DNA of 64,000 nt from an uncultured Planctomycetia bacterium (lineage in GTDB: Bacteria > Omnitrophota > Gorgyraeia > 2-02-FULL-51-18). Every line of letters starts with the position of its first letter. The stretch's first letter is position 1. The stretch is taken from the NCBI GenBank assembly GCA_964642015.1, contig CAZXLF010000005.1:75847-139846 (forward strand), given 5' to 3'. The notes under the pieces were generated by a model. That model searched no databases, had not been told where the DNA came from, and saw only the letters and a program-made list of their open reading frames with translations. Of this stretch, positions 2,474-21,891 are shown piece after piece. The translations under genes and the position numbers were made by a program.

Positions 2474-2681
2474 TTTTCTTAATATTTTTTTCCATTTTAT
2501 TTATATCCTTTAATAGACTATAAACTTATTTAAACTATTTAATAAGTAGCTTACATTTATATTTTTTAGAATTCAATGGAAGCTTTGATGTTTTTAACAA
2601 TAAACTTTATATAAGTACTTATAAATAAAAGAGTAATATAAATGATTATTTAAGATAATAGTATAGGATGGGTTTACTTGA

Positions 2682-3170: not shown

Positions 3171-3186
3171 GAGTCCTTCTCCTAGT

Positions 3187-5112: not shown

Positions 5113-5689
5113 ATTTTTCCCCTTTATAGTTCAGTGTAACACGGCCGGAAGTCACCTTTTCTATCTGAAAGGAATCTATTGTATCTCCCTCTCTAACATA
5201 AAATACTTTTTGGATTTTCTTATTTTCGATCACCGCTTGCGGATTTTTTCCATCTATGACCGCGACTAAATTAAGATCTTTGAATGCCTCAGAGCTAGTT
5301 TGATTTGAGGCGGTTCCCGAATCAGCGCTTCCTCCTAGCGGTTCAAACACGTTCCTTCTAGAAATTTCGGCAATAAATGCTTGTTTTGACAAAGGCTCTT
5401 TCAAAGCGTTCGCGTCGTCCTGAGATGGGGAAGAAAAGCTTCTAGCATTCTCCCTGACATTATCGCTGGGTTTATAAGGAAATATGAATGTGTATACCAA
5501 AAATGATGCGGATAAAAAAAGAGCTAAAAAAATGATATTCTGCGGGTGAAGCCATTTGACTTTTCGCAAAAGACCTAAAGAGATTTGCTGATGTGGGGCG
5601 TACTCGGAGGCCGATCTCGCATCTTTCTTTTTTTCCTTCTCTCCGGCTCGGATCAGATGGAGAAGTTTTTCCTCTGGTGTCGGGCTCAT
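5096..5689 (-). CDS. GspC/PilP-like secretin-interacting protein (TM plus C-terminal beta domain).
   Basis: It has a single TM helix. The C-terminal roughly 60 aa (LVAVIDGKNPQAVIENKK...FQIEKVTSGRVTLNYKGEKYDL) look like a PilP/HR-type fold. The gene sits immediately upstream of the secretin with a 17-nt overlap. Confidence 0.4.
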   Translation of the reverse strand: MSPTPEEKLLHLIRAGEKEKKKDARSASEYAPHQQISLGLLRKVKWLHPQNIIFLALFLSASFLVYTFIFPYKPSDNVRENARSFSSPSQDDANALKEPLSKQAFIAEISRRNVFEPLGGSADSGTASNQTSSEAFKDLNLVAVIDGKNPQAVIENKKIQKVFYVREGDTIDSFQIEKVTSGRVTLNYKGEKYDLAL

Positions 5690-6507
5690 TATACGGCAAC
5701 CTCGTCACAGAGCACGCTGCGGACCAGTTCTTGATCAATAGACGATCTTTCTAAAATGATCGATTGCTTTAATGCATCATGACACAACATCGCAATACGT
5801 CTAGGGTAACCCTGGGTCTTTTCATAGATGAGCTGCACTGCTCCATCCGTGAACAATGGTTGTTTATCGGCGTAACCCGCCTTTTTTAAGCGGAACTCGA
5901 TCATACGAGCCGTATCTTTTTCATCGAGAGGATTGATCGTATATTTCAAGGCAACTCGATCCATAAAATTCCTAACCCGTTGAATCCTCTGAAAAAGTTC
6001 CATCTGGCCCATGATAACTAACTGAAGTAATTTGTAATTATTCGTCTCGTAATTCAAAAGCATTCTCAAAACTTCAAGATTTTCCGTCGATATTTTTTGG
6101 CTCTCATCAATGATTAGAATGATCACTTGATCTTCTTCCACGCCTTTTTGAAAAAGATATTTTTCTATCGCTTCCTTAAAATCGAGCGTCGAACGGAACG
6201 GCGGTTCAATATCGAATAATTTGGTAAGAGAAAAAAGGAATTGATATTCCGATTTGCATCCCGGATCCAGGATCATATGGAATATATAATTGGGGTCATC
6301 CTTAAAAGCTTTGATCAGCATCCGAGATAGAGTCGTTTTCCCGGTACCAACGTCTCCGAATACAAGATTGAGCCCCCGCCGAAGACGGATCGAAATTTCG
6401 AGGCGACGTAATGCAGTCTCGTGGCTTGTGGAATGGTAAAAAAAATCCGGATCCGGACTAGTTGAAAACGGCTCTAAATCAAGTCCTAAGGCTCTATAGT
6501 AACTCAT
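5689..6507 (-). CDS. ExeA/GspA-like AAA+ ATPase, cytoplasmic domain only.
   Basis: Walker A is GDVGTGKTT and Walker B is VIILIIDESQ. At 272 aa it lacks the TM and peptidoglycan-binding half of full-length ExeA. Confidence 0.6.
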   Translation of the reverse strand: MSYYRALGLDLEPFSTSPDPDFFYHSTSHETALRRLEISIRLRRGLNLVFGDVGTGKTTLSRMLIKAFKDDPNYIFHMILDPGCKSEYQFLFSLTKLFDIEPPFRSTLDFKEAIEKYLFQKGVEEDQVIILIIDESQKISTENLEVLRMLLNYETNNYKLLQLVIMGQMELFQRIQRVRNFMDRVALKYTINPLDEKDTARMIEFRLKKAGYADKQPLFTDGAVQLIYEKTQGYPRRIAMLCHDALKQSIILERSSIDQELVRSVLCDEVAV

Positions 6508-6715
6508 TTTTTATCTGCCGAATCGATAGCCCATCTTTTCTCATTCGACGGATCTTAAGGAGAACATGCACGCTATCTTCGTTAAAATAACGATAACCTG
6601 TTTCAGGACTTCGTGCCACCTCCTTAAAGAGACCATCCCTTAAGTAATATTTAAGAGTGTGAACAGAAAAACCTGTACGGCGCGCTAAATCTTTTAAAAG
6701 ATAGACTTCCTGGAT
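6494..6715 (-). CDS. Small MerR-family HTH protein (DNA-binding domain only) with an apparent non-canonical ATC start.
   Basis: Translated by eye: IQEVYLLKDLARRTGFSVHTLKYYLRDGLFKEVARSPETGYRYFNEDSVHVLLKIRRMRKDGLSIRQIKNELL. AGGAGG lies 5 nt upstream of the ATC. An in-frame TAG sits directly upstream, so no ATG/GTG/TTG start is available. The 3' end overlaps the exeA-like start by 14 nt. It is absent from the ORF track. Confidence 0.4.
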   Translation of the reverse strand: MQEVYLLKDLARRTGFSVHTLKYYLRDGLFKEVARSPETGYRYFNEDSVHVLLKIRRMRKDGLSIRQIKNELL

Positions 6716-6814
6716 AAAAGCCTCCTGCTATCACTCTCTGACCAGAGAGTATATCAAAAAAAGCAAAAATTAACAAAATTATTAAATTTATAGTTATTTA
6801 TACAAAAGGCAAAT

Positions 6815-7336
6815 CTATGGCGAGTACGGGGAATAGAAAACAGAAACGATAAAAGAAGCATCCAGGTTATTAGAACCTATTTGAGACCCAATCGATAATC
6901 TTTCTATTCGAAAACTCGATAACGGTTGATCGAGCTCAAATATAAAGCCTGAAACTTTATCCGCTTGCCCTCGTATCCGTAAATTGATCAATATCTGCTT
7001 AAAAGATTTAAGTTGTTTGACACTTTCGGCGTCGGGGCGTATTTCTAAGACTTCAACATTATTCTCATGAGCGATCGTTTCGATAGACGACAGAATATCG
7101 GATGATTCTTTGAAAAATTTCAATGCAGATCCAGATCCTGACGGAACTGATAGATTCTTTTGATATTGATGGTATTTGAAGATTCTTTTCTGAACGGTAA
7201 TGATTTCTTTGCCCATCTTGGAATAATGATCGATAAAAGGCGAAAGAGCAAATTGATAAAAAAAAGCTAGAATGATAACTATCCCAGTCGCTACAAGAAT
7301 ATACCGTTCTCTTTCTGACAGACCCTTTTTTTCCAT
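6815..7336 (-). CDS. gspM: T2SS protein M / PilO-like.
   Basis: 173 aa with an N-terminal TM helix. Size and position, directly after gspL, fit GspM. Confidence 0.5.
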   Translation of the reverse strand: MEKKGLSERERYILVATGIVIILAFFYQFALSPFIDHYSKMGKEIITVQKRIFKYHQYQKNLSVPSGSGSALKFFKESSDILSSIETIAHENNVEVLEIRPDAESVKQLKSFKQILINLRIRGQADKVSGFIFELDQPLSSFRIERLSIGSQIGSNNLDASFIVSVFYSPYSP

Positions 7337-7361
7337 TTAAATGACCTTGTTCTCTATTATT

Positions 7362-8768
7362 TTAAGAACGCTTCGCACATACGATCTCAAAATCGACAGC
7401 CCCTGCATCGCGCCTGGTTATATAACGCACAGAGGCTTCAAAATCTTTTAAAATATCCGAATGATTTAGACTCGATACAAATCTTAAGAGATCATTATAA
7501 TCTTGCGCTCTTCCGCGTAACTCGATCGTGTTAGATTCTTCATACAAAAAATTTATAAGAGATATATTCTCGGGAAGCAGTTTATGAACTTCATAATAGG
7601 CGTAAACAGCCCTTGGCTGTTTTTCAAAATGATCTTTCAAAACTTCACGAGATCTTTCCATTTCTTCAAATACTTTGGTATCGGAAATAGTACTTTTAGA
7701 CTCGGTCTTTAGATGCCTAAGATAAGACGCTCTTATTTGAAAAATATGGAAAAACGAAACCCCCAACAGAAAAATAACCAAGGCGATCAATGATAAAATT
7801 TTGATTCGTTGATTTATTTCTTTATGTTTTTCCCTTTGTTGCCTTATTTTTTCAGGAATAAAATTAAGAGCGGGCTTAATGTCAGAAACGCCTAAAGCCG
7901 AAATGGGAAAATGTTCGATTTCGGCATTTTCCGGAAGCATGATCTTTTCATCGACCCATTGGGCGGTGTTCAATGGCATCGTTTCACAGACCAATCCCAG
8001 AGAAGACAAATCGGCGCTTGCTGCTTCAGCTTCTCTCTTTGACCCAAAAATGACGGTTTTTTCTATTTTAGAATCCAAATTCTCTTTTTTTAAAGATTGT
8101 ATGATCTGCAGGACCGCTGATCTAAGGTCACTTATCCAATCCGCGTTATTCCTGTCAAGACGCACGCATTTTTCAAGCAAAAGCACCTGATCCTTGCTCA
8201 CTGCCAATTCAGCAAAAAAATGACCCAATTCAATGGACAAAATGGATCCCTGGACAGAAAGAAAATTTCTTTTTGTGACGCAAGCAAGCCCGCTTGTTGA
8301 AAGCGTCACGAATATATTCCGCCTTCTTTTCATGAACGAATCCGCAAAAAAACGTTCTATGACCTTGGCCGGTACGATAACAAGGTGGACATGAGAATAG
8401 TTGTCTTCCGTTTTCTCGATTATTTCATAACCGATGGTCAATTCCTCCGATTGATAAGGCAAATATTTTGATGCTTGGAACCCAAGCATCTTTTCTATCT
8501 CGATCGGATCATGAGTGGGGACTTTCACATATCTGAATGTATAATCGAGAGCTGACAAAAGCACGATAACAGGCTCACCTCGATAGTTTTCCATCCTTAA
8601 GAATTCGTCCACCGCGAGTTCCAGTCTCTTGTCGTCGGAAAAATCTCCTGCTATAAAATGATAAAAAGATAATTTAGGCGGATCGGTCTTGGAGAAGGAA
8701 CATCTTAAAAGTTCAAGCCCCAGATTCTTGGATATTTTCACTACAAAATAATTCTTTAAGCGTACCAC
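7362..8768 (-). CDS. gspL: T2SS protein L (PilM-like cytoplasmic domain, TM, then PilN-like periplasmic domain).
   Basis: 468 aa. The cytoplasmic N-terminal domain is followed by a TM helix (ILSLIALVIFLLGVSFFHIF) and a periplasmic tail. It overlaps gspK. Confidence 0.6.
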   Translation of the reverse strand: MVRLKNYFVVKISKNLGLELLRCSFSKTDPPKLSFYHFIAGDFSDDKRLELAVDEFLRMENYRGEPVIVLLSALDYTFRYVKVPTHDPIEIEKMLGFQASKYLPYQSEELTIGYEIIEKTEDNYSHVHLVIVPAKVIERFFADSFMKRRRNIFVTLSTSGLACVTKRNFLSVQGSILSIELGHFFAELAVSKDQVLLLEKCVRLDRNNADWISDLRSAVLQIIQSLKKENLDSKIEKTVIFGSKREAEAASADLSSLGLVCETMPLNTAQWVDEKIMLPENAEIEHFPISALGVSDIKPALNFIPEKIRQQREKHKEINQRIKILSLIALVIFLLGVSFFHIFQIRASYLRHLKTESKSTISDTKVFEEMERSREVLKDHFEKQPRAVYAYYEVHKLLPENISLINFLYEESNTIELRGRAQDYNDLLRFVSSLNHSDILKDFEASVRYITRRDAGAVDFEIVCAKRS

Positions 8769-9766
8769 TTTAACCGATCCTGGCTTCTTATATAAAATAC
8801 GGTGAGATCTTTTTTTACGCTTCCTGCGGTGCCTCGGACATGAATATTAAAATTATCAGAATCCGCCTTGATCCATCCGAGAGAAATGGTTTGTTTGACC
8901 AATTTTGTTCTTGGGTCATCTGCAACTGACCCTAGGCCTAATTTAGCGGCGATGACACGAGCATCCATATCATCGGAAGAAAAATATTGCCCCCCCTGTC
9001 TATAGTTGAGCACTGATCGAGCGAGATTTTCTGCGTCCATCTCAGTAATATCCAATTTTCCAATACTATTTAAATACTCATCATATGCCGCTTTGAACAG
9101 GCTTCGCAACACATATTCACTGGCCGTATTGATATTGATCTTATCCGTGCCAAGGGTCGTAAACCCTTCTTTTATCTGATCGAGAATATCCTCGTCCAGA
9201 CCGTAAAAACTTTTTACCAAAGCCAATTCATCCAAAACAGAAAAGTCGGATGCTTTGCACTCATACCCAAGCTGGCCCTTATAATAATTCTCCGATTCTT
9301 TATCGAGAGCTTCGGCTCCCCGCCACATTCGGATGTCCTTAGCGCCTAACGCGCTTTGTATTTCGTTAAAACCGCACTCTCTGAGAAATCTTCTGATCAA
9401 GGATTCAGGCGCTTTATTAATATTGATCTTCCCATCTTCTTCTCTTATTCCATAATAGGTCCCATCTTTGTTCTCATAAAAAATGCTCCCTAAAACGCTG
9501 TTTTCTTTGTCTATTTCTATTTTTTTAAAAGCCTCGTTTTTTGCCCATATTTCATTAAGGTGATCCTGTGAACTTTCCCGACCGTCCTGTATCAGACAAA
9601 GCTGTGCCATCCCTATCGCGGATCGAGCTGCCGCATAGGAACGCACTTCATCCAAAGAAGCTGATGCAATCCTGAGCGTTTGAGATACCTGAAAAGCCAA
9701 GCTGATACATACAAGCGTCAATAGAACCAACGCCCAAACACAAATGATCAATACCGATCCCTTCAT
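8756..9766 (-). CDS. gspK: T2SS minor pseudopilin K.
   Basis: N-terminal TM helix. The ININTASEYVLRSL HhH-like motif is typical of GspK. 336 aa. Confidence 0.75.
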   Translation of the reverse strand: MKGSVLIICVWALVLLTLVCISLAFQVSQTLRIASASLDEVRSYAAARSAIGMAQLCLIQDGRESSQDHLNEIWAKNEAFKKIEIDKENSVLGSIFYENKDGTYYGIREEDGKININKAPESLIRRFLRECGFNEIQSALGAKDIRMWRGAEALDKESENYYKGQLGYECKASDFSVLDELALVKSFYGLDEDILDQIKEGFTTLGTDKININTASEYVLRSLFKAAYDEYLNSIGKLDITEMDAENLARSVLNYRQGGQYFSSDDMDARVIAAKLGLGSVADDPRTKLVKQTISLGWIKADSDNFNIHVRGTAGSVKKDLTVFYIRSQDRLKWYA

Positions 9767-9780
9767 TTTTTGTCCGCTTC

Positions 9781-10377
9781 CTATGAGAGATAGAACTTTC
9801 TTTTGAAAATACCGTCCCCGCCTGTCCGCATTTCAATCTCAAGCCAATCGGGCATCTTCAATGGGTTCGACCAGGATTCCGAGACGATCTCCTTGCTGGT
9901 ATCTTTGTCCAAATAACCGTAAGTCAGATGAAACATTTTCACATCATCCAAAAAAATCAAAGCGCCCTGTTCGACAGGGATTTCCTTAAGCGCATCACCT
10001 CTGAACAACGCGTTTCTGTAAATCTTATCCTGCTTAAAAAAATAAACGACACGGGCAAAATGAGGGGACGTCCTTTTGATCTTTCCGTTCAATTCCTTTT
10101 CCCAGCGTTCTTTCAATGTAAAAAATTCGATCCGCGAAGCATCGCCTTTAAAATGACACTGAGTCACAGAATACGGAAATAGCTCTCTTAGATCATCTGC
10201 AAAAACCACAAAAAACCTGAAGAACGGCTCTCTTCGGCGCAAAATTTGGTCCGTTCTTCTGTAACTTCGGATACCCGAATTAAAAGCGCCTGACAGAGAA
10301 ACGACTACTATCGCTGATAGGGACAAAGCGATCAATATCTCAATTAAAGTCAAACCCGAGTTTTTCCTGAGTCTCAT
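9781..10377 (-). CDS. gspJ: T2SS minor pseudopilin J.
   Basis: Prepilin motif G|LTLIEILIALSL with E at +5. The start was moved to the internal ATG at 10377, because the ORF-track start at 10449 adds an implausible 24-aa leader. Confidence 0.7.
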   Translation of the reverse strand: MRLRKNSGLTLIEILIALSLSAIVVVSLSGAFNSGIRSYRRTDQILRRREPFFRFFVVFADDLRELFPYSVTQCHFKGDASRIEFFTLKERWEKELNGKIKRTSPHFARVVYFFKQDKIYRNALFRGDALKEIPVEQGALIFLDDVKMFHLTYGYLDKDTSKEIVSESWSNPLKMPDWLEIEMRTGGDGIFKRKFYLS

Positions 10378-10759
10378 CTCTTTTTTCCACAAGTATCGAT
10401 CGAACGATGATCGTCTCTTCTTTCCCTTCACGCATGGGATGCATTTCAAGTTTAAAACGGTACGTATCGAAACCCGGCGTAGAAAGATCCCAATCTTTAT
10501 CGAAAAAAGCTTTCACATGAACATTATCTTCTCGGGAGTTTATCGCCGAAACTTTTGCCAATACTTCTTCTCTCCCTTTCTGGTAATTCAAGTCGACCCA
10601 TTCCAACGAATCGATACTGGTTAATTGCAACTCACTGGCGTAAAGTGAGAGTTTTGAGGAGAAAGCGATGGTCTGAAGCGCGATCACGACTCCGAAAGCC
10701 AATAAAGCAACGGCGATCATGACTTCGAGAAGAAGAAAACCTCTTGAATCAAGCCGCAA
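10340..10759 (-). CDS. gspI: T2SS minor pseudopilin I.
   Basis: Prepilin motif RG|FLLLEVMIAVALLAF. 139 aa. Confidence 0.7.
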   Translation of the reverse strand: MRLDSRGFLLLEVMIAVALLAFGVVIALQTIAFSSKLSLYASELQLTSIDSLEWVDLNYQKGREEVLAKVSAINSREDNVHVKAFFDKDWDLSTPGFDTYRFKLEMHPMREGKEETIIVRSILVEKRDETQEKLGFDFN

Positions 10760-11210
10760 GTCTAAAATCTCCGAAAAAATCCTTCGAAGTCACTTTTCTG
10801 CTGTTCTTATTACTATCCTCAAACGTAATCTCGGCTGGGTCCAGACTCCCATCAGGGTAAAAAACGACGTTCGGAAAAGAACTTTTAATTGAGATCTGGT
10901 ACGGCAACTGTTTAAAAAGATGCTTCTCGTTCTGCTGCTCATACTCAAGCCAATAGCTTTTTTCGATGGAGTTGATCACCAGTTTGACCGGGTTCCCTTG
11001 GCTTCGGGCTCTCGAGCCTGCATAGCGCGTCACACTCATGAAATCTCTGACCACGCTGTCCAAACTTTCCTCTGATAGCCTGCCCGATATTCTGGGAAGA
11101 AGAAGCGCCGTGAAAATCCCCAAGATCGTGATGACCACGAGAAGTTCAATATATGTAAAACCGGAATTCCGCAAAAAATAGTTCTTATTTGAGTTCGCCG
11201 GCCATTTCAT
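10749..11210 (-). CDS. gspH: T2SS minor pseudopilin H.
   Basis: Prepilin motif SG|FTYIELLVVITILGI. The start is probably the second Met (MKWPANS...). Confidence 0.7.
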   Translation of the reverse strand: MKWPANSNKNYFLRNSGFTYIELLVVITILGIFTALLLPRISGRLSEESLDSVVRDFMSVTRYAGSRARSQGNPVKLVINSIEKSYWLEYEQQNEKHLFKQLPYQISIKSSFPNVVFYPDGSLDPAEITFEDSNKNSRKVTSKDFFGDFRLAA

Positions 11211-11638
11211 TATTCGGCTTTTGAAGAAGAGGACTGCCAATTGCCGATATCATCCTCATCCCCCTCTTCGCCGTCCGGACCTGTGGAAAATACATCATAA
11301 TCATTGCTGTGTTTACCTGGCTTTAGATAATGATAACGATTGCCCCAGGGGTCGACCGGTTTCTTTTTAAGGTAGGGGCCTTTCCAATTCTTGGCTGAGC
11401 TAGGCTGTGAAAGCAATGCCTCCAACCCTTCTTCGGTGGTCGGAAGTTTGCCATTGTCCACTTCATAAAGGTCCAATGCGAGAGGAATTGCTCCTGAAAC
11501 ATCGCTGCGCGCCACCTCCGTGCGCGCCTGCTCGCTACGGCCTAAAAGTCTCGGCATCACCATGGCGGCCAGCACGCCGATGATAATGATCACGAGCATG
11601 AGTTCGATCAGCGTAAAACCCTTGCTATTTTTAGCCAT
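11210..11638 (-). CDS. gspG: T2SS major pseudopilin G.
   Basis: Starts MAKNSKGFTLIELMLVIIIIGVLAA. The DPWGNRYHY...PG...YDVFSTGPDG motif is diagnostic of GspG. Confidence 0.9.
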   Translation of the reverse strand: MAKNSKGFTLIELMLVIIIIGVLAAMVMPRLLGRSEQARTEVARSDVSGAIPLALDLYEVDNGKLPTTEEGLEALLSQPSSAKNWKGPYLKKKPVDPWGNRYHYLKPGKHSNDYDVFSTGPDGEEGDEDDIGNWQSSSSKAE

Positions 11639-11649
11639 TGTATTATTCG

Positions 11650-12855
11650 CTATCTTACCAAAAAATTAATTTCAAAAATAGGCAAAAGCATGGATATCAC
11701 GATGAATCCTACGACCAAGCCGACAATGAGGATCACCATCGGTTCGAGTATTTTGGCAAAAATTTTTAACGATCCGTCCACTTCGCTTTCATAATCCTCA
11801 GCGATCCGCGAAAGGGTCTGATCCAGATTCCCCGTTTTTTCGCCGACCATGATCATCTGAACGGCCATTTCGGGAAAAATGCCAAGTTGTTTCAATGCTT
11901 CAGAAAAACTAGCTCCACCGAATATATTTTCCAGGATCATCTTCATCTTTTGTTTCAAGAACTCATTGTCAACGATGGAGATCGATGTCTGAAGAGCGCT
12001 GGCAAGAGGAATACCGCTCGAATAAAGAAGTGATAATACGCGTGATAGCCGGCCTATCTGAGCTTTAAATAAAAGAGGTCCAAAAAAAGGAATTTGAATT
12101 TTGACCCTATCATATATTGATCGATTTTTCACATCTTTCAATAACGTCATTGCCAGAGCCCAGACAATGCCCAAAAATAAAACGATGAAAAAACTGTTCT
12201 TTATAAGAAACGAGGAGATAAAAATAAGTATTTGAGTCGGGAGCGGCAATGCTTGTCCCATCTCTTTGAATACCATTACGATCTTAGGGACCACAAAAAA
12301 GAGCAGAGCAAAAATGGTCAAAAATCCCGTAAATATCACAAAAAACGGGTAGATCAGACTGTCCACCAGAGATCTCTTGTAATTTTGGGCCTTTTCCAAA
12401 TATTCAGACAGCCGTTTCAGTGTTTCCTTAAGTTTTCCGGAAGTCTCACCGGCATAGACCAATGCAATATACAGACTCGAGAAGATATTCGGATATTTTT
12501 TCATGCTATCCGATAGAGAACTGCCTTCCTTGATATCGCGGATCATATCTATCAGGATCGTTTTAAGCCCTACGCTCGGATTATTTTTAGAAAGCGAGTT
12601 CAGCGCCTCCATCACCGTAACGCCCGAATCGACAAGAGTAGCAAGCTGAGAAGTAAAAAGGATAAGATGCGCAGGTTTTACTTTTTTTGGAAAAAAAGAA
12701 AGATGAAAATTTTGAGCCGTTTGTGCGTTCACTTCCAAAGGAAAATAGCCTAATTGTTGGAGTCGAAAAACCGCGTCCGAGACGGATTCCGCCTCTAAAT
12801 CTCCTTGGATGATCTGCATAGGATCTTGTTTGGCTTTATAGACAAAGCGTGTCAT
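11650..12855 (-). CDS. gspF: T2SS inner-membrane platform protein F.
   Basis: 401 aa polytopic GspF/PilC-family sequence with two repeated cytoplasmic domains. Confidence 0.9.
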   Translation of the reverse strand: MTRFVYKAKQDPMQIIQGDLEAESVSDAVFRLQQLGYFPLEVNAQTAQNFHLSFFPKKVKPAHLILFTSQLATLVDSGVTVMEALNSLSKNNPSVGLKTILIDMIRDIKEGSSLSDSMKKYPNIFSSLYIALVYAGETSGKLKETLKRLSEYLEKAQNYKRSLVDSLIYPFFVIFTGFLTIFALLFFVVPKIVMVFKEMGQALPLPTQILIFISSFLIKNSFFIVLFLGIVWALAMTLLKDVKNRSIYDRVKIQIPFFGPLLFKAQIGRLSRVLSLLYSSGIPLASALQTSISIVDNEFLKQKMKMILENIFGGASFSEALKQLGIFPEMAVQMIMVGEKTGNLDQTLSRIAEDYESEVDGSLKIFAKILEPMVILIVGLVVGFIVISMLLPIFEINFLVR

Positions 12856-12858
12856 AGA

Positions 12859-14580
12859 TTATTCTGAAGCTGTTTCATTCTCGATCTGCGTGACTCGAAA
12901 CACTTCCATCAATGTCGTCAGACCGGAAAACGCCTTCAGGATACCGTCTTCCCTTAACGTCTTCATGCCTTGGCTGATCGCGACCTTTTCGATCTCCTGG
13001 CTTGAGGCGCGGCGGATAATAAGTTTCCGGATGGCTTCGTTCATCAGGATCACTTCATGGATGGCCATGCGTCCCCTATAACCAGTAAAACGGCATGCTT
13101 CACAGCCGCGTCCTTCCAAAAAATCGGCTTTGGATAGATCAAGGCGGGTATCTTTTATCCTATCCAACCATCTTTGTTTTGCTTCGCCGGAAAGACGCTC
13201 TTTACAATCCGGGCAGACCGTGCGGACCAGCCGCTGGGCGACTATACATTCAAGCGATGAAGCCACCAAAAAAGGCTCCAACCCCATATCCAAAAGTCTC
13301 GTGACGGCCCCCGGGGCATCATTCGTATGGAGCGTCGAAAGCACCAAGTGCCCGGTCAAAGCGGAGCGGATAGCGATCTCGGCCGTTTCGATGTCGCGCA
13401 CTTCCCCGATCATGATCACATCGGGATCATGACGCAAGATATGACGCAAAGCCAAAGCGAAATCAAGACCGATCTGCGGACTGACTTGAATTTGATTGAT
13501 CCCGCGTAATTGATATTCGACCGGATCTTCGGTCGTAACGATCTTGACCGATGAAGAATTCAACTTTGCAAGACAAGCGTAAAGCGTGGTGGATTTTCCG
13601 GCTCCGGTCGGACCGGTTACGAACACGATCCCGTGTAGTTTTTCGATCGCGTGTTCCAACTTTGCTCGGCTGTCGGTAGAAAGCCCTAATTTTCCGATCT
13701 CCAAGAAAAGTCCGGAGCTCAAGATGCGGATCTGAACCGATTCTCCAAAAATGGTCGGGATCGTCGAGACGCGCAGGTCCAGTTCCTCTTCATTCACTTT
13801 GATCTTGATGCGCCCGTCTTGCGGTAAGCGGCGGTCCGCAATATTCATTTTCGCCATGATCTTGATACGAGACACGATAGCAGGCTGAAAATAGCGCACA
13901 GTTTCAGGGACCGGTACTTCATAAAGCAGGCCATCAATGCGAAAACGGACTCTCAACTGCTCTTGGAACGGTTCTATATGAATATCTGTCGCGCGTTGTT
14001 TGACGGCCTCCGATAAGACCTGATTAACGAATCGAATGATCGAAGCTTCATTTGCCATCGACTCGATATCTTCGGCATCTTCATTGGCCTTTTCCATCTC
14101 CAAGACGCCTTTCTGAGCGATGATCTTTTCGACCGTCTCGGCGCCGACCCCATAATATTTGCGTATAGCTTCCTCAATTTCGATCTCACTCGCCAAGGCG
14201 CCTTCCACTTCCAGCTCTAAAAAAAGACGGAGGTCGTCCAAAATACGGGTATCCATAGGGTCCGCCATGGCCACCGTCAAGCAATGATTCTCGAATTTGG
14301 TGGGGATCACTTTATAATGGCTGACAAATTTGGCGGGAACTTTTTGAATAACGGAAGCATGGATATGCTTTCCTTTCAAATGCACGTAAGGAATATTCAA
14401 CTGACGAGCTAAAAGCGAGAAAACTTTTTCTTCAGAGGCAAAACCTAATTGTACAAGTGCCGTACAAATCAGCATCCCTGTCTTTTTCTGTTCCCGAAGA
14501 CCACGGTCAAGCTGTTCTGAAGTAATGACTCCGTTCTCTACTAAAATTTGCCCTATTTTGATGTTACTAACAGTAGTCAT
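12859..14580 (-). CDS. gspE: T2SS assembly ATPase E.
   Basis: GspE N-terminal domain. Walker A is GPTGAGKSTTLYA. A C-terminal tetracysteine motif is present (CPDC...CEAC). Confidence 0.9.
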   Translation of the reverse strand: MTTVSNIKIGQILVENGVITSEQLDRGLREQKKTGMLICTALVQLGFASEEKVFSLLARQLNIPYVHLKGKHIHASVIQKVPAKFVSHYKVIPTKFENHCLTVAMADPMDTRILDDLRLFLELEVEGALASEIEIEEAIRKYYGVGAETVEKIIAQKGVLEMEKANEDAEDIESMANEASIIRFVNQVLSEAVKQRATDIHIEPFQEQLRVRFRIDGLLYEVPVPETVRYFQPAIVSRIKIMAKMNIADRRLPQDGRIKIKVNEEELDLRVSTIPTIFGESVQIRILSSGLFLEIGKLGLSTDSRAKLEHAIEKLHGIVFVTGPTGAGKSTTLYACLAKLNSSSVKIVTTEDPVEYQLRGINQIQVSPQIGLDFALALRHILRHDPDVIMIGEVRDIETAEIAIRSALTGHLVLSTLHTNDAPGAVTRLLDMGLEPFLVASSLECIVAQRLVRTVCPDCKERLSGEAKQRWLDRIKDTRLDLSKADFLEGRGCEACRFTGYRGRMAIHEVILMNEAIRKLIIRRASSQEIEKVAISQGMKTLREDGILKAFSGLTTLMEVFRVTQIENETASE

Positions 14581-15049: not shown

Positions 15050-15562
15050 TTATGTGGCATTTATCTTTAATCCCGCCCGCTTGCATTCATAAAGAAAATC
15101 CGTTACTGACACATCGGTATCGATCCTTTGAGATTTGCCGGATGCTTTAACGACCAAAAAAGTAGGGTAGCCGGTAATTCCGAACTTTTTCATTAACCGG
15201 CTCTCTTGGTCGCCATCTATCTTTACCTTGACGACCGATCTTAGCGCGCTGGTGCCGCGAGAAGACCAAAGAATGTCCCTCGTGAATTGTTTACAATAAT
15301 GGCACCATGTGGCATAAAAATAAATGACGAACGCCTCACCGGTGATCTTTTGTTCTTCGACTGCTTTTTTATAGCCCGTCGAGTTTTCAAACCACGGATA
15401 GGATTTGCTTAACACCGGAGCAGGAGAGCTGGTCACGATCGGTCCTGAATCGCTCGGTGGATCCTTGCTATAGATGACCAATGTATCGTCATCTTGCGCA
15501 GCCAGAGCCAGTGCGGAGAAAAAAATCATGACGATAAAGGTCATGGCCGTTCTTTTAAACAT
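15050..15562 (-). CDS. Secreted thioredoxin-fold protein (TlpA/ResA-like).
   Basis: Signal peptide plus the WCHYC CxxC motif. 170 aa. Confidence 0.75.
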   Translation of the reverse strand: MFKRTAMTFIVMIFFSALALAAQDDDTLVIYSKDPPSDSGPIVTSSPAPVLSKSYPWFENSTGYKKAVEEQKITGEAFVIYFYATWCHYCKQFTRDILWSSRGTSALRSVVKVKIDGDQESRLMKKFGITGYPTFLVVKASGKSQRIDTDVSVTDFLYECKRAGLKINAT

Positions 15563-15635
15563 GATGCACCGTTGATGGTTTCATAAAAACTAATATACTA
15601 GACGCAGTTCGGTATACGGTATTTAAAAATATCTA

Positions 15636-15860
15636 ATTGCGGCGCGGTCCTCTCCCCCATTTGCTATATTCGACGAGGGGTTACTCTCGTTAGGACTCGT
15701 CGGCCGGAAAACTATATTCGGCCGAACCGCACCCCCTCCCGCGCACGTCGTCTGCGGCAGGCTTAAGGAAAGTTCATTTTTATCTTCAGCCGCAGAACCG
15801 AGGGGTGATGTGATTTATTAAGAACCCTCGGCTCCTGGGTCAGGGACGTTTCACTTTTTA
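15636..15860. ncRNA. GC-rich structured intergenic element, unassigned (candidate ncRNA or cis-regulatory leader).
   Basis: A 304-nt non-coding gap whose GC content is far above the flanking sequence. Perfect inverted repeats: CGACGAG/CTCGTCG, TCGGCCG/CGGCCGA and CCGAGGG/CCCTCGG. Direct repeats: CTATATTCG x2, CGAGGGGT x2 and a C5-TC motif x2. Confidence 0.3.
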
Positions 15861-15866
15861 TTGTTA

Positions 15867-16370
15867 TTATTTAATCGCCCTTAATAAAACTCTCCATTCG
15901 CCCATGGCTTTCTTATTTGATACGCGATCCAGAACCTCCGCACGAAAAACATAAATTCCAGGAGGATCTGTTTTTTCAAGCGTAAAATCAATGGCCGGGT
16001 CTAGCATTACAAAGCCTCTTTTTTTCATAATATGTTTATGGACATGCTGGTCAATTTGCTTCATAATTTTTTCGTTTTTAGGATTAATAACAAATAAGCT
16101 GCCTATCAAATCTGTACTTCCAAGTTTATTAAGGTCAAATCCTGATACCACGATACTAATATAAATTGTTTTATTAGGGCCAATCTCGTGAACTCTCTTA
16201 ATATGAATTGGATGTTCAGGACGAGTCGAAATCCATTCTTTTATATAGTCTGGAGTGTCTGCAGTGGCAACATAAACCGTTAAATTTGGCCCTGCTTCCA
16301 ATGAATAACCCGATGCAGGGAGAAAAACAAGACTTGATAAAATTAATAAAATTCGAATTAAGAAGATCAC
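15867..16370 (-). CDS. Small secreted protein, candidate second Rhs immunity protein.
   Basis: Signal peptide. AT-rich. Its start overlaps the upstream ORF's stop, and it lies downstream of the rhs C-terminus. Confidence 0.4.
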   Translation of the reverse strand: MIFLIRILLILSSLVFLPASGYSLEAGPNLTVYVATADTPDYIKEWISTRPEHPIHIKRVHEIGPNKTIYISIVVSGFDLNKLGSTDLIGSLFVINPKNEKIMKQIDQHVHKHIMKKRGFVMLDPAIDFTLEKTDPPGIYVFRAEVLDRVSNKKAMGEWRVLLRAIK

Positions 16371-16888
16371 GGTCTTCCACTTACTGCTACACGTATTTGA
16401 ACTGATTTATCTAATTTCGAAATCTGAGCATCAGGTTCTAAAACGGTTATCTTTACATACAAATTATCTGAGTTTCCTTTATACGGAATTGGAAACTCAT
16501 ACATTGAGAATTCTTTATACCTATCTCTTTTGTTTTCGGAACCAAAATAAGCTATTGGTTTTTCCACTATTACAGACTCTAATACGTGTATATCATTATA
16601 GAGTTCTATTAATAATCTCCCTTTGTAAATATAATCGATAGGAATACTCTCGGTATCTGAATAAAAACTAATCTGATAAATATCGTGATACTTCGCATTT
16701 AATTTATAGATTCGGTTAAAACCTTTTTCTGATAAATTAAAATTATCTTGGACAATGGACTTGTACAAATCGACCTTCGGAGCGATTGAGTTAAAGAAAT
16801 GTGCTAATCCTGGCTGGGAAGATATATACTTAAAACTGATTAAAAGAAGAATTACTGATATTAAGAAAAAGGATTTTTTATTAATCAT
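16367..16888 (-). CDS. Small secreted protein, candidate cognate Rhs immunity protein.
   Basis: Signal peptide. About 30% GC. The start codon overlaps the rhs stop (16888), the classic toxin-immunity arrangement. Confidence 0.45.
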   Translation of the reverse strand: MINKKSFFLISVILLLISFKYISSQPGLAHFFNSIAPKVDLYKSIVQDNFNLSEKGFNRIYKLNAKYHDIYQISFYSDTESIPIDYIYKGRLLIELYNDIHVLESVIVEKPIAYFGSENKRDRYKEFSMYEFPIPYKGNSDNLYVKITVLEPDAQISKLDKSVQIRVAVSGRP

Positions 16889-19800
16889 CAGCCTGAATTA
16901 CGCTGTATATCTAAAAGTAAATAATAAACCTCTCTTAACCTTTCCGCAAAATCTTGGCAATTATTCTTTTCTTTTCCATCCAATCCAAACAACGAAAAGT
17001 CTCCGGTTCTCACGATTTTCAAGGCCTCTCTCATAACATCATCGTTATAATGCCTGTTGTCTGTTCTCTCGTATTGAGATGGGTCTTCGTTGTAAAAAAG
17101 ACCGTTCGGTCCGAAGCCAACATTTGATGGTTGTCTTCCATCTTCAAAAAATCCTTGTTCATGACTCAATTCAATATTGTTCCAATCTAAAACGTCATTG
17201 TTAATTGCAATTGGAACATCGCTCAATTTTCTTTTGGCAAAATAAAATAAACCAAATGGGTCAATAAAGCTAGTCGGGTTGTTTTTTACATATATAAAGA
17301 AATTAACGCCCCCTATAAATTTTGCTGGGTCTTCAGTAATAAACCTCCCTACAGATGGATTATAGTATCTATTCCTGTAGTAATAAAGGTTCGTTTCATT
17401 ATCCCACTGTCTTCCCGTGAACTGGAACTCATTATTCACAGAGCCTGTCTTGGATCTTGTATCTCCGAATACATCGTACGTATAGGTGCCGACAGATGTG
17501 CCGCTCAAGTTCGTGAGCATGCTCACAGACCCTAGGCCGTCGTAGATATAATAGGTATCCTGCGCTCCGGTACGCAGCGAAAGGGTCTCATCTATCCTCG
17601 GCCCATGGATATAAGACCTCTGAATATTGTCGGCGCTATTGGTCTCAAAGAGCGTCTCGAAGCCGTCGTAGTAGGTCCTTGTGACCTTGGTATTGACGCT
17701 CTTTTCTACCCTTCTCCCCAGCCCATCATAGGTATAGGTATCGGTATTGGTGCCTTGAGTGGCTTGTTTCAAGCGGTTCTCAAAGTCATAGGTGTAGTTT
17801 CTTGTGACAGCGTTGTTGGTGTTCTTCTCAGAGATCAGATCCCCGTTGGCGTCGTAAGAATAGAGTTTATTTTTGGAGGTGAGGAGACGGTTGGCGGCAT
17901 CATAGGTGTAAGTGTCGGATACTTTGCCGTTCTTCTTTAAAGTAAGACGATTGCCGACACCGTCATAGCTATATTCGAGCTTTGTTCCCGCGGGATAAAC
18001 CACAGAAGTAAGTCTATAGTCATTGTCGTAGGTGTAAGTGTGTGTGCCTTCATTATCCATCAAGGACAGTCTGTTGCCTACGCTGTCATAAGCATAGGAG
18101 AAGCTCGCGGTATTGAGATTTGAGCTTGTGTTTTTGTAGATGAGACTGGTGAGTCTATTGGCATTGTCGTAGGCATAGGCGGCTTGGATATTATTCGGAT
18201 AAGTAAGCAGCGTTCTCCTGCCTCCCGCATCATAGGCATAATTAAATACCTGGTTCTTCGGCGTCGTGAGAGACGTAAGCCGGTTCATGACGTCATAGGC
18301 ATATGTAGTCGTCCCGACGGTTGAAACCATCGTAGCTGTGTTCCCCACCGCATCATAGGTATACGACATTGTCTTGCCTTTCGGGAAAGTCACCTGGGAA
18401 AGCCGATTGAGCTTGTCATAAACATACTGTGTAAGTCCTGTGGCATCGGACATCGAGGCAAGATTTCCCGCGGCGTCGTAAACATTCGTCACAGTGGACG
18501 CGTCGGGATAAGTCGTCGCAAGAAGCCGGTTCACGGCGTCATAAGAATAACTTGTTTTATTTCCATTGGCGTCTGTTCTTGAAATAAGATTGCCCACGTT
18601 ATCGTAAGCGAATTTTGTGATGTTACCCAACGCGTCCTGCTCGCTGACCTTTCTGTCAAAAGCATCGTAGACGAATGTGGTAAGACCGCTGTTAGCGTCC
18701 TTGACGCTCAAAAGATTTCCGACATTATCATAGGTAAGCGTCGTGATAGCGCCCATAGGATCTTTGCTTGTGATCAACCGGTCAAGCGCATCATAAGTAA
18801 AAACGCTTTGATTGTTATCCGCGTCCGTCACCGAAAGCACATTTCCGTGAGCATCATACGTGAACGTCGTGACGTGATTCATCGCATCGGTGATCGTCGA
18901 AGGGTGGCTGGAAGCATTGACATTGCCCTGGTCCGAGCATGAACTGCATCCGCTGTCTCCGGATCCAAGCGGCGCGCCGTAAGCGAATTTCGTCATGTTG
19001 CCGTTGGGATCCGTCACGCTAAGAAGACGGTCATCATCGTCATAAGTCATATTGGTGGATGAGCCGTTGGCGAACTGGATCTTCAATATCCTATCACCGG
19101 CGTCATACGTAAAAGCAGTCGTTCTACCCAGAGTGTTCGTGACCGAAAGAAGCCGGCCGACGACATCATAGTTGAAGCTTGTGGTGTTCCCCAGGGCATC
19201 TGTCTGAGACACGAGATTCCCATAACCGTCATAAGCGTAGGACGTCGTATTGCCCAAAGGATCAGTCTGAGTTAGAAGCTCATCCAGATTATTATAGGTA
19301 GAAGTCGTGATGTGTCCCGAAGCATCTGTCAGTTTGGTGACATTTCCGTGGGAGTCGAAATCACGGCTCGTGACATGACCATTGCGGTCTGTTATCGACT
19401 GCCAGAAATTATAAGAGCTGTTATAAGAATAGGCCGTGATGTTGCCAGAAGAATCGGTATTCTGATTAAGGTTCTGATCTGAACCATAAGCCAAGGTCGT
19501 CGCCCTCCCTAACGCATCTGTCTTCTGTGTCATGAGGTTCGTATTGGGATCATAAGAATATTTCCACACACCACCCGTGGGATCCAAAGCTAGCGTGCCA
19601 AGACCGATCTTAAAATATTCGTAACTCCAATTATTTTTCAGCTGATCGGTCATCGTCGAAGTGCCGAGCAAATTGTTATAAGAAAATTGAATCGTGGAGC
19701 CGTCGGGCTTGACTTCTTTGATCACCTGGTCAGTACTATTGTAAGTATAGTTGGTGGCATAGCCCATCGCGTCCGTCACAGTTGTGATATTATGCGGATC

Positions 19801-20685
19801 AAACGGATCAGTGTAGCTATAATTAACTTTTCTATTTAATGGATCTTTGACCGAGATCAAATTGTTCAATAAATTATCGTAATTATAAGTCCAGATTCGG
19901 TTCAACGGATCGGTCATCTGGCTTATTTTGCCGTTGGAGCCATAAGTGAAATTCAAGCTTCGTCCTAAGTCATCGCTGATGGAATTTTTGAAGCCGTTCG
20001 CATCATAACTAAATTTGATCGAATGCCCGCTTCGGTCGCTTATAGAAGTAAGACGTGTGATAAAATTTTGATCGAAATGGTAGGTCGTTCCATGAGGTTT
20101 TGCGTAAGCAAAAGTTCCTTGGAGCGGATCCCCTCCTGTCGAATACCACGAGACATTTCTTTGGCCATCTGTAAAAACCACCGGACCCGGAACGATCTGC
20201 GTATCGGTCAACAATAGAAAAGTAAGGAGTGAGCTGTCTTGATCCCTTACGGTCACCGATGAGCCAGCTTTCATGGTTCCGCTGATCACAATAAAATTTG
20301 TGATAAGTTCAATATCAAGTGTTGAAGTCCAACCCGCGCCGAATACGCCGCTAAAACCGATCTGATTCGAATAACTGCGGATCAGCTGAAGCGAAAAACC
20401 ATTTCTTGATGTGCCGGGTCCCGGGATCTTGACATCTGTCACAGGAATGTAGAGCTTGCCGCCGGTAAGCAGTACCGGATCTACAGGGCAAGTGGTATCA
20501 ACCGGAGGGTTAAAACAATTTGGACAAGACGGAGGGCAATCTTTAAGATTATAAGGTTGAGCAGTAGTAAAAGAAGTGGCGGTAGGGCAACCAGCGGGCG
20601 GTGATTGATTGGCCATCGCAAAATTCTGCAGGCCGAATGTCAGAACACAAAGAAAGCTGATGAACTTAAGGGAACGGTTTTTCAT
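16888..20685 (-). CDS. rhs: Rhs/YD-repeat polymorphic toxin with a Sec signal peptide and a variable C-terminal toxin domain.
   Basis: Signal peptide MKNRSLKFISFLCVLTFGLQNFAMA. Dozens of YD repeats (YTYDAHGNVLSVTD, YDALDRLITSKD...). The Rhs core end reads YYNPSVGRFITEDPAKFIGGVNFFIYVKNNPTSFIDPFGL, followed by a 116-aa tip. Confidence 0.9.
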   Translation of the reverse strand: MKNRSLKFISFLCVLTFGLQNFAMANQSPPAGCPTATSFTTAQPYNLKDCPPSCPNCFNPPVDTTCPVDPVLLTGGKLYIPVTDVKIPGPGTSRNGFSLQLIRSYSNQIGFSGVFGAGWTSTLDIELITNFIVISGTMKAGSSVTVRDQDSSLLTFLLLTDTQIVPGPVVFTDGQRNVSWYSTGGDPLQGTFAYAKPHGTTYHFDQNFITRLTSISDRSGHSIKFSYDANGFKNSISDDLGRSLNFTYGSNGKISQMTDPLNRIWTYNYDNLLNNLISVKDPLNRKVNYSYTDPFDPHNITTVTDAMGYATNYTYNSTDQVIKEVKPDGSTIQFSYNNLLGTSTMTDQLKNNWSYEYFKIGLGTLALDPTGGVWKYSYDPNTNLMTQKTDALGRATTLAYGSDQNLNQNTDSSGNITAYSYNSSYNFWQSITDRNGHVTSRDFDSHGNVTKLTDASGHITTSTYNNLDELLTQTDPLGNTTSYAYDGYGNLVSQTDALGNTTSFNYDVVGRLLSVTNTLGRTTAFTYDAGDRILKIQFANGSSTNMTYDDDDRLLSVTDPNGNMTKFAYGAPLGSGDSGCSSCSDQGNVNASSHPSTITDAMNHVTTFTYDAHGNVLSVTDADNNQSVFTYDALDRLITSKDPMGAITTLTYDNVGNLLSVKDANSGLTTFVYDAFDRKVSEQDALGNITKFAYDNVGNLISRTDANGNKTSYSYDAVNRLLATTYPDASTVTNVYDAAGNLASMSDATGLTQYVYDKLNRLSQVTFPKGKTMSYTYDAVGNTATMVSTVGTTTYAYDVMNRLTSLTTPKNQVFNYAYDAGGRRTLLTYPNNIQAAYAYDNANRLTSLIYKNTSSNLNTASFSYAYDSVGNRLSLMDNEGTHTYTYDNDYRLTSVVYPAGTKLEYSYDGVGNRLTLKKNGKVSDTYTYDAANRLLTSKNKLYSYDANGDLISEKNTNNAVTRNYTYDFENRLKQATQGTNTDTYTYDGLGRRVEKSVNTKVTRTYYDGFETLFETNSADNIQRSYIHGPRIDETLSLRTGAQDTYYIYDGLGSVSMLTNLSGTSVGTYTYDVFGDTRSKTGSVNNEFQFTGRQWDNETNLYYYRNRYYNPSVGRFITEDPAKFIGGVNFFIYVKNNPTSFIDPFGLFYFAKRKLSDVPIAINNDVLDWNNIELSHEQGFFEDGRQPSNVGFGPNGLFYNEDPSQYERTDNRHYNDDVMREALKIVRTGDFSLFGLDGKEKNNCQDFAERLREVYYLLLDIQRNSG

Positions 20686-21891
20686 TTAAAAGCCCTCCGC
20701 GGACTGCAAGGCATCGGGATTGTTCTTCAAGATAGCTTTGTACCTTTGGATCGTTCTCAAAGATTCTTGGGCTTCCTCGTATCGCTTTTCACTCAAAAAG
20801 TCGTCTTGTTTGACGCTTGAAAATTCCTGTTCGGATCTGTCGAGGTCCCTTAGATAAAAATAGATCCTTCCTTTCCTAAGATGCGCTTCTGAAGAATAAC
20901 CTTTTATCTGGGACGCCTGGTCAAGCAATGCGAGAGCTTCTTTTGGTTTCTTGAGATCGTAGTCGATATCGGCCATCTCCATCATGATCTCAGCGGTCAT
21001 CTTGCCATCTTTTAGAGCATTGTCAGCGTAATTAAGCGCTTGCTGAAGCCGGTCCGTCAGCGTGTAATCATTGCGAAAAGATTGGATGACCTTCACGGGA
21101 TTAAAATCCGCCTCGAACATTTCCCGCGCTTTGGCGAATTGATGAAGCTGCGAATAAAGATCGCCTAAGCCATTCTTATCGTTTACTTGAGTAAAATAGG
21201 CTTCTGCTTTCTTAAAATCCCCTTGCGCCATCGCAACATAACCGAGTCCTGAAACATCATGGGCTTTCTGGAAATAGACGGCGGCTTTTTCGTAGTGTCT
21301 CACGGCCAGGAACACAAGTCCCATACCGCTGTCATCTTTCGCCAAAGTGAAATTGCGCGTCGCCGCGTCAAAATCTTTTTCTTTTAACGCGGTCAGGCCG
21401 AGGCCTGTATAATCCTGGATCCTCTGGAAACAATTTTTGGCCTCTTTTGTGTTATTTTTGGCAAGCGCGATAAGACCCAAGCCCGACCAATCATTGGCTT
21501 TTGAAAAAGCGTCCCGCGCATTTTGCTCATCCTTGAGCGCTAAGTAGGTAAGGCCGAGGCCGCGGTTGTCATTCTTTAAAAGAAAGTGTTTTAGAGCTTC
21601 TTGATATTCACGCCTTTTCAGTCTACAAAGCCCCAGCCCTGAAAGGTCATTGGCCTTTAAAAAGTGGCTCTCCGCTTCATAGGGTTTATTTTGGGCGAGC
21701 ATGACCAGGCCGGCGCCTGATTCATTCCCTATTTTAGAATAAAGCTCCAGCGCTTCATTGAATTGATGCTTGGTGAACGCCAAATACGCGCGTGTCTCCT
21801 CTCCCCCTTCAAAGCCCAGCACGAACGCGGTAGAAATAATAAGCGATATCAAAAAGATCAATTTCAATCGTGGTCTATTCATGGCGCGCAC
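20686..21891 (-). CDS. Secreted TPR-like repeat protein (seven roughly 34-aa repeats, each containing SGLGL/TGLGL).
   Basis: Signal peptide. The repeat pattern is F.KAND.SGLGL.AL....Y..A...F. Its stop abuts the rhs start. Confidence 0.7.
   Translation of the reverse strand: MRAMNRPRLKLIFLISLIISTAFVLGFEGGEETRAYLAFTKHQFNEALELYSKIGNESGAGLVMLAQNKPYEAESHFLKANDLSGLGLCRLKRREYQEALKHFLLKNDNRGLGLTYLALKDEQNARDAFSKANDWSGLGLIALAKNNTKEAKNCFQRIQDYTGLGLTALKEKDFDAATRNFTLAKDDSGMGLVFLAVRHYEKAAVYFQKAHDVSGLGYVAMAQGDFKKAEAYFTQVNDKNGLGDLYSQLHQFAKAREMFEADFNPVKVIQSFRNDYTLTDRLQQALNYADNALKDGKMTAEIMMEMADIDYDLKKPKEALALLDQASQIKGYSSEAHLRKGRIYFYLRDLDRSEQEFSSVKQDDFLSEKRYEEAQESLRTIQRYKAILKNNPDALQSAEGF

Follow-up and report, generated by a model that had tools for sequence, protein, structure and literature searches.

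A compact Rhs toxin tip with a predicted circularly permuted NlpC/P60 fold and a co-inherited candidate immunity family

Lipid-targeting toxins of the NlpC/P60 superfamily were first directly characterised in 2026, with the description of Tox-Act1, an effector of the Salmonella SPI-6 type VI secretion system (T6SS) that is toxic only in the periplasm, depends on essential His and Cys residues, and cleaves phosphatidylglycerol and phosphatidylethanolamine to lysophospholipids (PMC12994826). Its immunity protein, Imm-Act1, is membrane-embedded with two transmembrane (TM) segments, and phospholipase activity in liposomes has also been described for the effector TseH (PMC12994826). Here we describe a Rhs/YD-repeat toxin gene whose C-terminal tip belongs to a large family of related domains. 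The gene lies in a 64,000-nucleotide stretch of DNA (hereafter the window) from an uncultured bacterium of the Omnitrophota (contig CAZXLF010000005.1, positions 75,847 to 139,846). The tip very probably adopts a circularly permuted NlpC/P60 fold, resembling that of LRAT and PPPDE proteins, with Cys–His chemistry.

The Rhs gene (16888..20685, minus strand) encodes a protein of 1265 amino acids in which a Sec-type signal segment is followed by a DUF6531 domain, a YD-repeat shell, a Rhs-associated core, and the tip. The N terminus is signal-like (MKNRSLKFISFLCVLTFGLQNFAMA, then NQ), DUF6531 occupies residues 69–156, and RHS repeats are recognised in 22 stretches of the protein (PF05593, E 4e-118), with TIGR01643 matching at E 5e-80. 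Domain searches found no PAAR or VgrG match in the protein. The Rhs-associated core (residues 1070–1146; 17248..17478, minus strand; TIGR03696, 84.5 bits) stops precisely at the Leu of DPFGL (codons 17262–17248), which is where an earlier reading of the sequence alone had placed the end of the core. Both Asp residues of the segment ...TEDP...IDPFGL are there, 23 residues apart, a spacing that we take to be that of the Rhs/TcC aspartyl autoprotease. By analogy, the tip is predicted to be released at DPFGL by autoproteolysis through these two residues. The tip begins directly after this predicted cleavage site and comprises 119 amino acids (FYFAKRKL...RNSG; 16891..17247, minus strand; stop codon 16890–16888), and not the 116 that had been counted when the initial FYF was dropped. 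The Rhs protein of most similar length, from an Omnitrophota metagenome-assembled genome (MAG), is only 33% identical. Overall, the locus has the usual make-up of a Rhs polymorphic toxin whose tip–immunity cassette can be exchanged.

When searched as a single sequence, the tip had no NCBIfam match at E ≤ 1 and a best match to PDB sequences of E 0.8, and Pfam returned one insignificant line (QRICH1, E 0.17, 12.4 bits against a cut-off of 30.8). These results agree with the sequence-only reading, which had recognised no known family in the tip. Profile searches of PDB sequences with 13 and with 71 family members gave no relevant match, and neither Pfam nor NCBIfam holds a model for the family as such. 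A word-index search yielded one homologue (P0001, 67% identical) and a profile search with the first tip sequences yielded 12 proteins, and an exhaustive HMMER search with 13 tips then reached at least 933 cluster representatives at E ≤ 1e-3, with 534 at ≤ 1e-10. Scanning one genome per species recovered 115 relatives. They come from Desulfobacterota, Nitrospirota, Omnitrophota, Kiritimatiellia, Lentisphaerota, Verrucomicrobiota, Burkholderiales, Dyella, strain HdN1, Cloacimonadales, Treponema, Rodentibacter (Pasteurellaceae), and others, and the family is richest in the Desulfovibrio group, Nitrospirota, Lentisphaerota, and Burkholderiales MAGs.

In these relatives, the domain is nearly always C-terminal and starts directly after DPxGL; elsewhere its start follows ...ENN (a VENN-type junction) or other pre-toxin junctions. 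The carriers include DUF6531-Rhs, Ig-Rhs, Peptidase_C39-Rhs, and haemagglutinin-repeat (CdiA-like) proteins. A few relatives (P0110, P0140, and P0088) hold the toxin domain at a non-terminal position, followed by 290–670 residues of adhesin-type domains (DUF7619, cadherin-like, Big_9, DUF11, and dockerin), an arrangement that is unusual for a Rhs tip. Another relative, P0006 (208 amino acids), has just three parts, namely a signal peptide, what is left of the Rhs core end (...NNPVLYFDKYGL), and the toxin domain itself, and may represent a stand-alone secreted mini-toxin. A short tail rich in Cys (e.g. ...KECCxK or ...ECGVC) terminates many of the relatives; the window tip does not have it.

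For conservation counts, the family profile served to align 192 distinct domain sequences. H29, G44, C97, and Y108 are invariant (192/192), followed by N96 (191), Q98 (190), E30 and D36 (189 each), D69 (188), and N42 (184). Position 31 is Gln in 59% of the sequences, and in some members it is the second His of SHEH. Besides the named invariant residues, no column of this alignment exceeds 40% His or Cys. Several of these residues form two motifs, H-E-Q-G-F-F-E-D-G at tip residues 29–37 (from the His29 codon at 17163–17161 to the Asp36 codon at 17142–17140, minus strand) and N96-C97-Q98-D99 (16951..16962, minus strand; Cys97 codon at 16959–16957). Because an invariant Cys resides in the N-C-Q motif, a thiol enzyme is indicated, in which Cys97 is the predicted nucleophile and His29 the predicted general base.

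We next consider the fold. Pfam scans run singly on 71 family members gave only two recurrent matches, both to circularly permuted papain-like enzymes. LRAT (PF04970) gave sub-threshold matches in 13 of the 71 (best E 3.8e-5; one at 24.4 bits, with a gathering threshold of 24.3), and Peptidase_C97/PPPDE (PF05903) did so in 10 (best E 3.3e-5; best score 24.2 bits, with a threshold of 29.2). These matches span a helix and the segment Y-x-L-x3-N-C-x2-[FW], corresponding to profile positions 80–116 of 120 for LRAT and 83–119 of 151 for Peptidase_C97, and C97 falls at about position 110–116 of both profiles. The window tip itself matches neither model (for LRAT, at E ≤ 1), and there was no match to NLPC_P60 or CHAP in any of the 71 relatives.

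An AlphaFold model built with 13 sequences was unusable (pLDDT 53), and one built with 71 sequences reached pLDDT 87.4 and pTM 0.79. This model places strands at residues 2–7, 28–33 (holding H29), 42–46 (holding N42 and G44), and 49–51, and helices at residues 69–78 and 97–118, such that C97 opens the last helix. The His thus lies on a strand N-terminal to a Cys-capped helix, which is the arrangement of permuted NlpC/P60 domains. The model is also similar to solved structures of that superfamily, its structural matches being the H-box/NC protein Aichivirus 2A (7zv6, score 6.5), DeSI/PPPDE (2wp7, 5.7), PLAAT4 (7zot, 5.7), YiiX (2if6, 5.5), the T6SS effector TseH (6v98, 5.3), CLN5 (6r99, 4.8), and the C92 enzyme from B. 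cereus (3kw0, 4.5). A Euglena complex-I subunit (8iuf_E7, 5.4) also matched.

Comparison with PLAAT3, whose sequence is identical to 7zom_A, aligns the two conserved motifs with known active-site elements. The PLAAT3 segment H23-WAIYVG-D30-G31 and the tip segment H29-EQGFFE-D36-G37 have equal H-x6-DG spacing, and therefore the H-x6-D of the tip corresponds to an LRAT-type H-box. Likewise, E-N-C113-E-H-F of PLAAT3 corresponds to N-N-C97-Q-D-F of the tip, and an hhalign comparison of the family with the single PLAAT3 sequence paired the two NC motifs (C97 with C113), just at 7% probability. The tip therefore carries both the H-box (H-x6-DG, as HEQGFFEDG) and the NC motif (NCxx[FW], as NNCQDF). 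The third catalytic residue would be N42, which is offset by one residue from His35 of PLAAT3, or D36.

Two genes follow the tip in overlapping arrangement. The first, imm1 (16367..16888, minus strand), is the predicted cognate immunity gene; its start codon and the Rhs stop codon share one base (TGATG), and its product of 173 amino acids consists of an N-terminal signal/anchor helix and a domain of about 150 residues. The second, imm2 (15867..16370, minus strand), overlaps imm1 at GTGA and encodes 167 amino acids with a signal-like N terminus, so that the products of both genes begin with a hydrophobic signal/anchor segment. We surveyed the first open reading frame (ORF) downstream of each tip in 81 loci, which hold about 95 tip occurrences in total (the two metagenome contigs L001/L002, on which P0001 lies, plus 79 genome loci). 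Iterated HMM searches placed this ORF in the imm1 family at 49 of these occurrences (E 1e-17 to 1e-63), including the partner of a distant tip paralogue on L001. In 43 of the 49 partners, a single N-terminal hydrophobic helix precedes about 150 further residues. Most of the other credible partners (about 25) are proteins of 53–146 amino acids that comprise two to four predicted TM helices and little else. A candidate immunity gene downstream is thus co-inherited with the tip, as is expected of a Rhs toxin. The imm1 family has no Pfam or PDB match, profile searches included. The imm2 protein is unrelated to imm1 and has no match in a word-index search of 5.8 billion proteins; it is a candidate second immunity or accessory protein that is specific to the lineage.

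Because the partners are always membrane-anchored or made of membrane segments, the toxin is expected to be met, and to act, at the membrane or in the periplasm. The Sec signal of the Rhs protein means that the toxin would cross the periplasm of the producer, which creates the need for such immunity. We therefore regard an envelope site of action for the tip as likely.

The composition of the DNA marks the tip and its partners as a unit. GC content is 0.361 in the tip (0.328 at third codon positions, GC3), 0.301 in imm1 (GC3 0.270), and 0.355 in imm2 (GC3 0.280), and 0.34 over the three together, compared with 0.465 in the Rhs core (GC3 0.527) and a mean of 0.442 ± 0.030 (SD) for 1381-nucleotide segments of the window. 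The cassette has the lowest GC content in the 64 kb, with only 0.3% of equal-length segments as low and the minimum lying inside it. These values confirm the earlier remark that the tip and downstream genes are AT-rich. The low-GC exchangeable cassette, comprising the last ~150 nucleotides of the Rhs core, the tip, imm1, and imm2, extends over 15867..17400 (minus strand), and past 15867, in the spacer, the GC content returns to 0.48.

The same boundary emerges from comparison with P0001, which is an orphan Rhs C-terminal fragment on a metagenome contig (L001/L002) that bears four orphan modules. Behind P0001 lie counterparts of imm1 (52% identity) and imm2 (54% identity), the latter being the only imm2 homologue found. 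Since all three genes are kept there, the tip, imm1, and imm2 travel together. DNA similarity to the L001 module begins at about window position 17389, with 63–70% identity, and the GC content switches at about 17400–17450, which is 150–200 nucleotides upstream of the DPFGL codons. Because both transitions precede DPFGL, the exchanged unit takes in the conserved stretch with which the core ends, as would be anticipated when a Rhs tip is replaced. A second orphan tip on L001 is the distant paralogue noted above (26% identity), in which RHDQ aligns with SHEQ and NNCQDY with NNCQDF. A search for additional copies in the window turned up neither a second tip nor another imm1, and no orphan Rhs end.

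L001 (positions 1–8056; metagenome contig ERZ27253376 k141_636153) has additional features of its own. Each of its four orphan Rhs C-terminal modules is accompanied by a downstream membrane or secreted ORF, and the tips of the window family are encoded at 3798–4229 and 5385–6332. The tip at 6982–7794 has a different His...YKLYSNNC pattern and also looks like a permuted papain-fold toxin. A gene for a Rce1-like (CPBP) protease lies at 1408–2130.

From these observations, we propose that the Sec-exported Rhs protein carries the tip as toxic cargo, and that aspartyl autoproteolysis at DPFGL would free the 119-residue domain. His29 on the H-box strand would then activate Cys97 at the start of the C-terminal helix, with Asn42 or Asp36 as the likely third residue, and an acyl-thioester would form, by analogy with PLAAT/LRAT, CLN5, the B. 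cereus C92 enzyme, TseH, and Salmonella Tox-Act1. In this way, the envelope lipids of the target cell, namely phospholipids and possibly lipoproteins, may lose fatty-acyl chains through cleavage or transfer on the periplasmic side of its membranes, which would yield lytic lysolipids. The producer would be shielded by the co-transcribed, membrane-anchored periplasmic product of imm1 (16367–16888), and the product of 15867–16370 would serve as a second, lineage-specific partner. Taken as a whole, the reading of the tip as a thiol acyl-hydrolase toxin that attacks envelope lipids from the periplasmic side, with imm1 as its immunity gene, seems to us somewhat favored. Its least certain part is the substrate. 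LRAT/PLAAT enzymes are phospholipases A1/2 and acyltransferases that work through an acyl-Cys intermediate, and CLN5 acts as a transacylase on lipids. The C92 enzymes have lipid amidase activity (PMC10318531). Because permuted NlpC/P60 families are largely lipid-directed in this manner, hydrolysis or transfer of acyl esters of envelope lipids is the most likely activity of the tip, and the case for a lipid substrate, made by analogy, is evenly balanced in our judgment.

The same Cys–His papain-like domain could instead act on peptidoglycan as an amidase or endopeptidase like Tae/Tse1, causing wall lysis, with imm1 as a periplasmic inhibitor. We consider this rather unlikely, given that the confirmed peptidoglycan-cleaving NlpC/P60 toxins all have the order Cys then His but the tip is permuted, and that the sequence matches of the family go to LRAT and PPPDE and none to NLPC_P60 or CHAP. 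In addition, the tiny polytopic partners of about 25 relatives have nearly no periplasmic domain, which fits neutralisation at the membrane, and both TseH and Tox-Act1 exhibit phospholipase activity (PMC12994826). The PPPDE affinity of the family would also accommodate an isopeptidase or protease resembling DeSI, whose target might be an envelope protein, a lipoprotein linkage, or a cytoplasmic protein after translocation. This is less probable again, since the immunity candidates are membrane-anchored or integral across the family and none is cytoplasmic, and since the Sec signal implies passage of the toxin through the producer periplasm. To our knowledge, bacteria also lack ubiquitin-like substrates.

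The sequence-only reading had likened the tip to LAS-type zinc peptidases because it contains an H-x6-D motif and a downstream His in RHYNDD. The first element is genuine, as H29 and D36 are conserved with the x6 spacing, and a zinc D,D- or L,D-peptidase could in principle use them. However, the RHYNDD residue (H66) is His in only 61 of the 192 sequences (32%), no second His motif is conserved to complete the zinc ligands, the model does not show the LAS fold, and the family has an invariant Cys instead. We therefore reject a LAS zinc peptidase, to which we assign a negligible likelihood. The overall interpretation in that reading is partly supported. A different departure from a phospholipid-directed acyl-hydrolase is that the tip represents a previously unrecognised, minimal (~115-residue) LRAT-like toxin family, distinct from Tox-Act1 and TseH and with its own immunity family, perhaps combining a substrate new to interbacterial toxins, export by the adjacent type II secretion system rather than a T6SS, and two envelope immunity proteins. 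Under this doubtful option, the substrates might be acyl chains of lipoproteins or of lipid A, or the reaction might be acyl transfer instead of hydrolysis.

The route by which the thiol toxin might leave the cell is suggested by its surroundings. No T6SS, PAAR, or VgrG genes were seen among the scanned ORFs of the window, of which the smaller ones were only partly scanned. Just downstream of the Rhs cassette and encoded on its strand is a complete-looking type II secretion system (T2SS)/pseudopilus cluster (3187–14580, minus strand). It encodes GspE (12859–14580), GspF (11650–12855), four pseudopilins (G-like and minor; 9781–11638), a secretin (3187–5112), and GspC-like, AAA ATPase, GspM-like, and PilN/GspL-like proteins. 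Because the Rhs protein has a Sec signal and no PAAR, and because the T2SS cluster adjoins it, T2SS-dependent export is conceivable, and a two-step exit, first through Sec and next through this T2SS, would be a sensible guess. Such a route agrees with the 'T2SS' class defined by Zhang et al. in 2012 (PMC3482391).

Upstream, a gene for a TPR-repeat protein (20686..21891, minus strand; TPR_2, E 7e-26) abuts the Rhs start codon and is probably the first of the operon. The best sigma-70-like promoter site of the region, as judged by match to the consensus, lies before it at 21941–21913. This TPR protein contains at least seven evenly spaced copies of '[ND]D.sGLG' (NDLSGLGLCRL, NDNRGLGLTYL, NDWSGLGLIAL, QDYTGLGLTAL, ...). 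Past the toxin cassette, a GC-rich spacer of 304 nucleotides (15563–15866), whose composition is normal and which folds no better than shuffled sequences (z −0.61) and matches no Rfam family, separates imm2 from a gene for a secreted thioredoxin with a signal peptide and a WCHYC motif (15050–15562, minus strand). The thioredoxin may serve to hold Cys97 of the toxin and other periplasmic thiols in reduced form, or may have no connection with the toxin. Farther away, the window encodes an LpxC-FabZ fusion (UDP-3-O-acyl-GlcNAc deacetylase and FabA-like dehydratase; 40082–41434, minus strand), BamA (43033–45396), and SurA (58075–59550), which together show that the organism is diderm and has lipid A. 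Other genes include FtsH, DnaB, GlnA, rpsB-tsf-pyrH-frr, SerRS, and four tRNAs, and the window is normal chromosomal DNA of such a bacterium.

How does the tip compare with described toxins and enzymes? In its general architecture, the locus resembles the Rhs/YD systems surveyed by Zhang et al. (PMC3482391), with a YD shell, a core ending in DPxGL, a variable tip, and an adjacent immunity gene, and it shares with them the lower GC content of the tip cassette and an orphan copy of the module in another genome, here L001. It differs from those systems in having a Sec signal, a neighboring type II secretion cluster rather than T6SS genes, and two downstream genes.

With regard to the enzyme fold, the LRAT/PLAAT proteins (H-rev107, PF04970, including picornavirus 2A) share the H-box and NC motif, but their third residue is His35 and that of the tip is probably Asn42 or Asp36. 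Unlike them, the tip has no C-terminal membrane anchor and scores below the Pfam threshold, and they are housekeeping lipid enzymes, whereas the tip is a toxin that a bacterium secretes and that is paired with an immunity protein. PPPDE/DeSI proteins (PF05903) and CLN5 are eukaryotic isopeptidases and lysosomal transacylases, respectively, whose match to the tip is limited to the segment of the NC motif, and we know of no toxin context for either. TseH of Vibrio cholerae (6v98, DUF6695) is larger (182 amino acids) and is a stand-alone T6SS cargo rather than a Rhs tip. None of the 71 relatives matches DUF6695, and the profile search of PDB sequences did not return 6v98. Tox-HDC (presumably PF15656) was considered because of its H, D, and C signature. 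In that family, SGxH, D/N, and C stand at the ends of three successive Rossmann-like strands, and an immunity gene is usually missing (PMC3482391). Tox-HDC was rejected on the grounds that none of the 71 relatives matches it, the Cys of the tip is on a helix, the tip reads SHE rather than SGxH, and immunity genes are present. The canonical NlpC/P60 amidase effectors (Tae/Tse1) were also rejected because the tip has the order His then Cys and no relative matches NLPC_P60 or CHAP. As judged by the models for these groups, the tip lies outside LRAT, C97, DUF6695/TseH, Tox-HDC, and canonical NlpC/P60.

The closest parallel is Tox-Act1, which has the same permuted NlpC/P60 core with the His before the Cys. 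Its relatives ride on Rhs, PAAR, and haemagglutinin carriers, and the window-tip family likewise occurs on Rhs and haemagglutinin-repeat proteins; many relatives of the window tip are paired with mini-proteins of two TM helices, as Tox-Act1 is with Imm-Act1. However, the His and Cys are 108 residues apart in Tox-Act1 (H43 and C151) and 68 residues apart in the window tip. Tox-Act1 relatives score against DUF4105 and TseH by HHpred, whereas the window-tip family scores only against LRAT and Peptidase_C97. The window immunity protein is also single-pass with a domain of about 150 residues, and its carrier is a Rhs protein with a Sec signal and no T6SS in view, unlike Tox-Act1. In addition, the taxa richest in the window-tip family are missing from the tables of the Tox-Act1 paper (PMC12994826). 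Spacing, Pfam affinities, and taxon tables suggest that the two families are separate.

The locus indicates that Tox-Act1 has a counterpart of the same fold in a far larger and more compact second family, which is equipped with a dedicated immunity family. Once the family is defined, hundreds of 'hypothetical' Rhs tips and their partners, spread over poorly studied phyla, could be annotated. The idea of a zinc peptidase gives way to a testable catalytic dyad, H29 and C97, and the tip is small and tractable enough as an enzyme to help establish what toxins with a permuted papain fold cut. Among the permuted NlpC/P60 interbacterial toxins, the tip is a new member at the level of a family, notable for its size, its compactness, and an immunity family that has not been annotated before.

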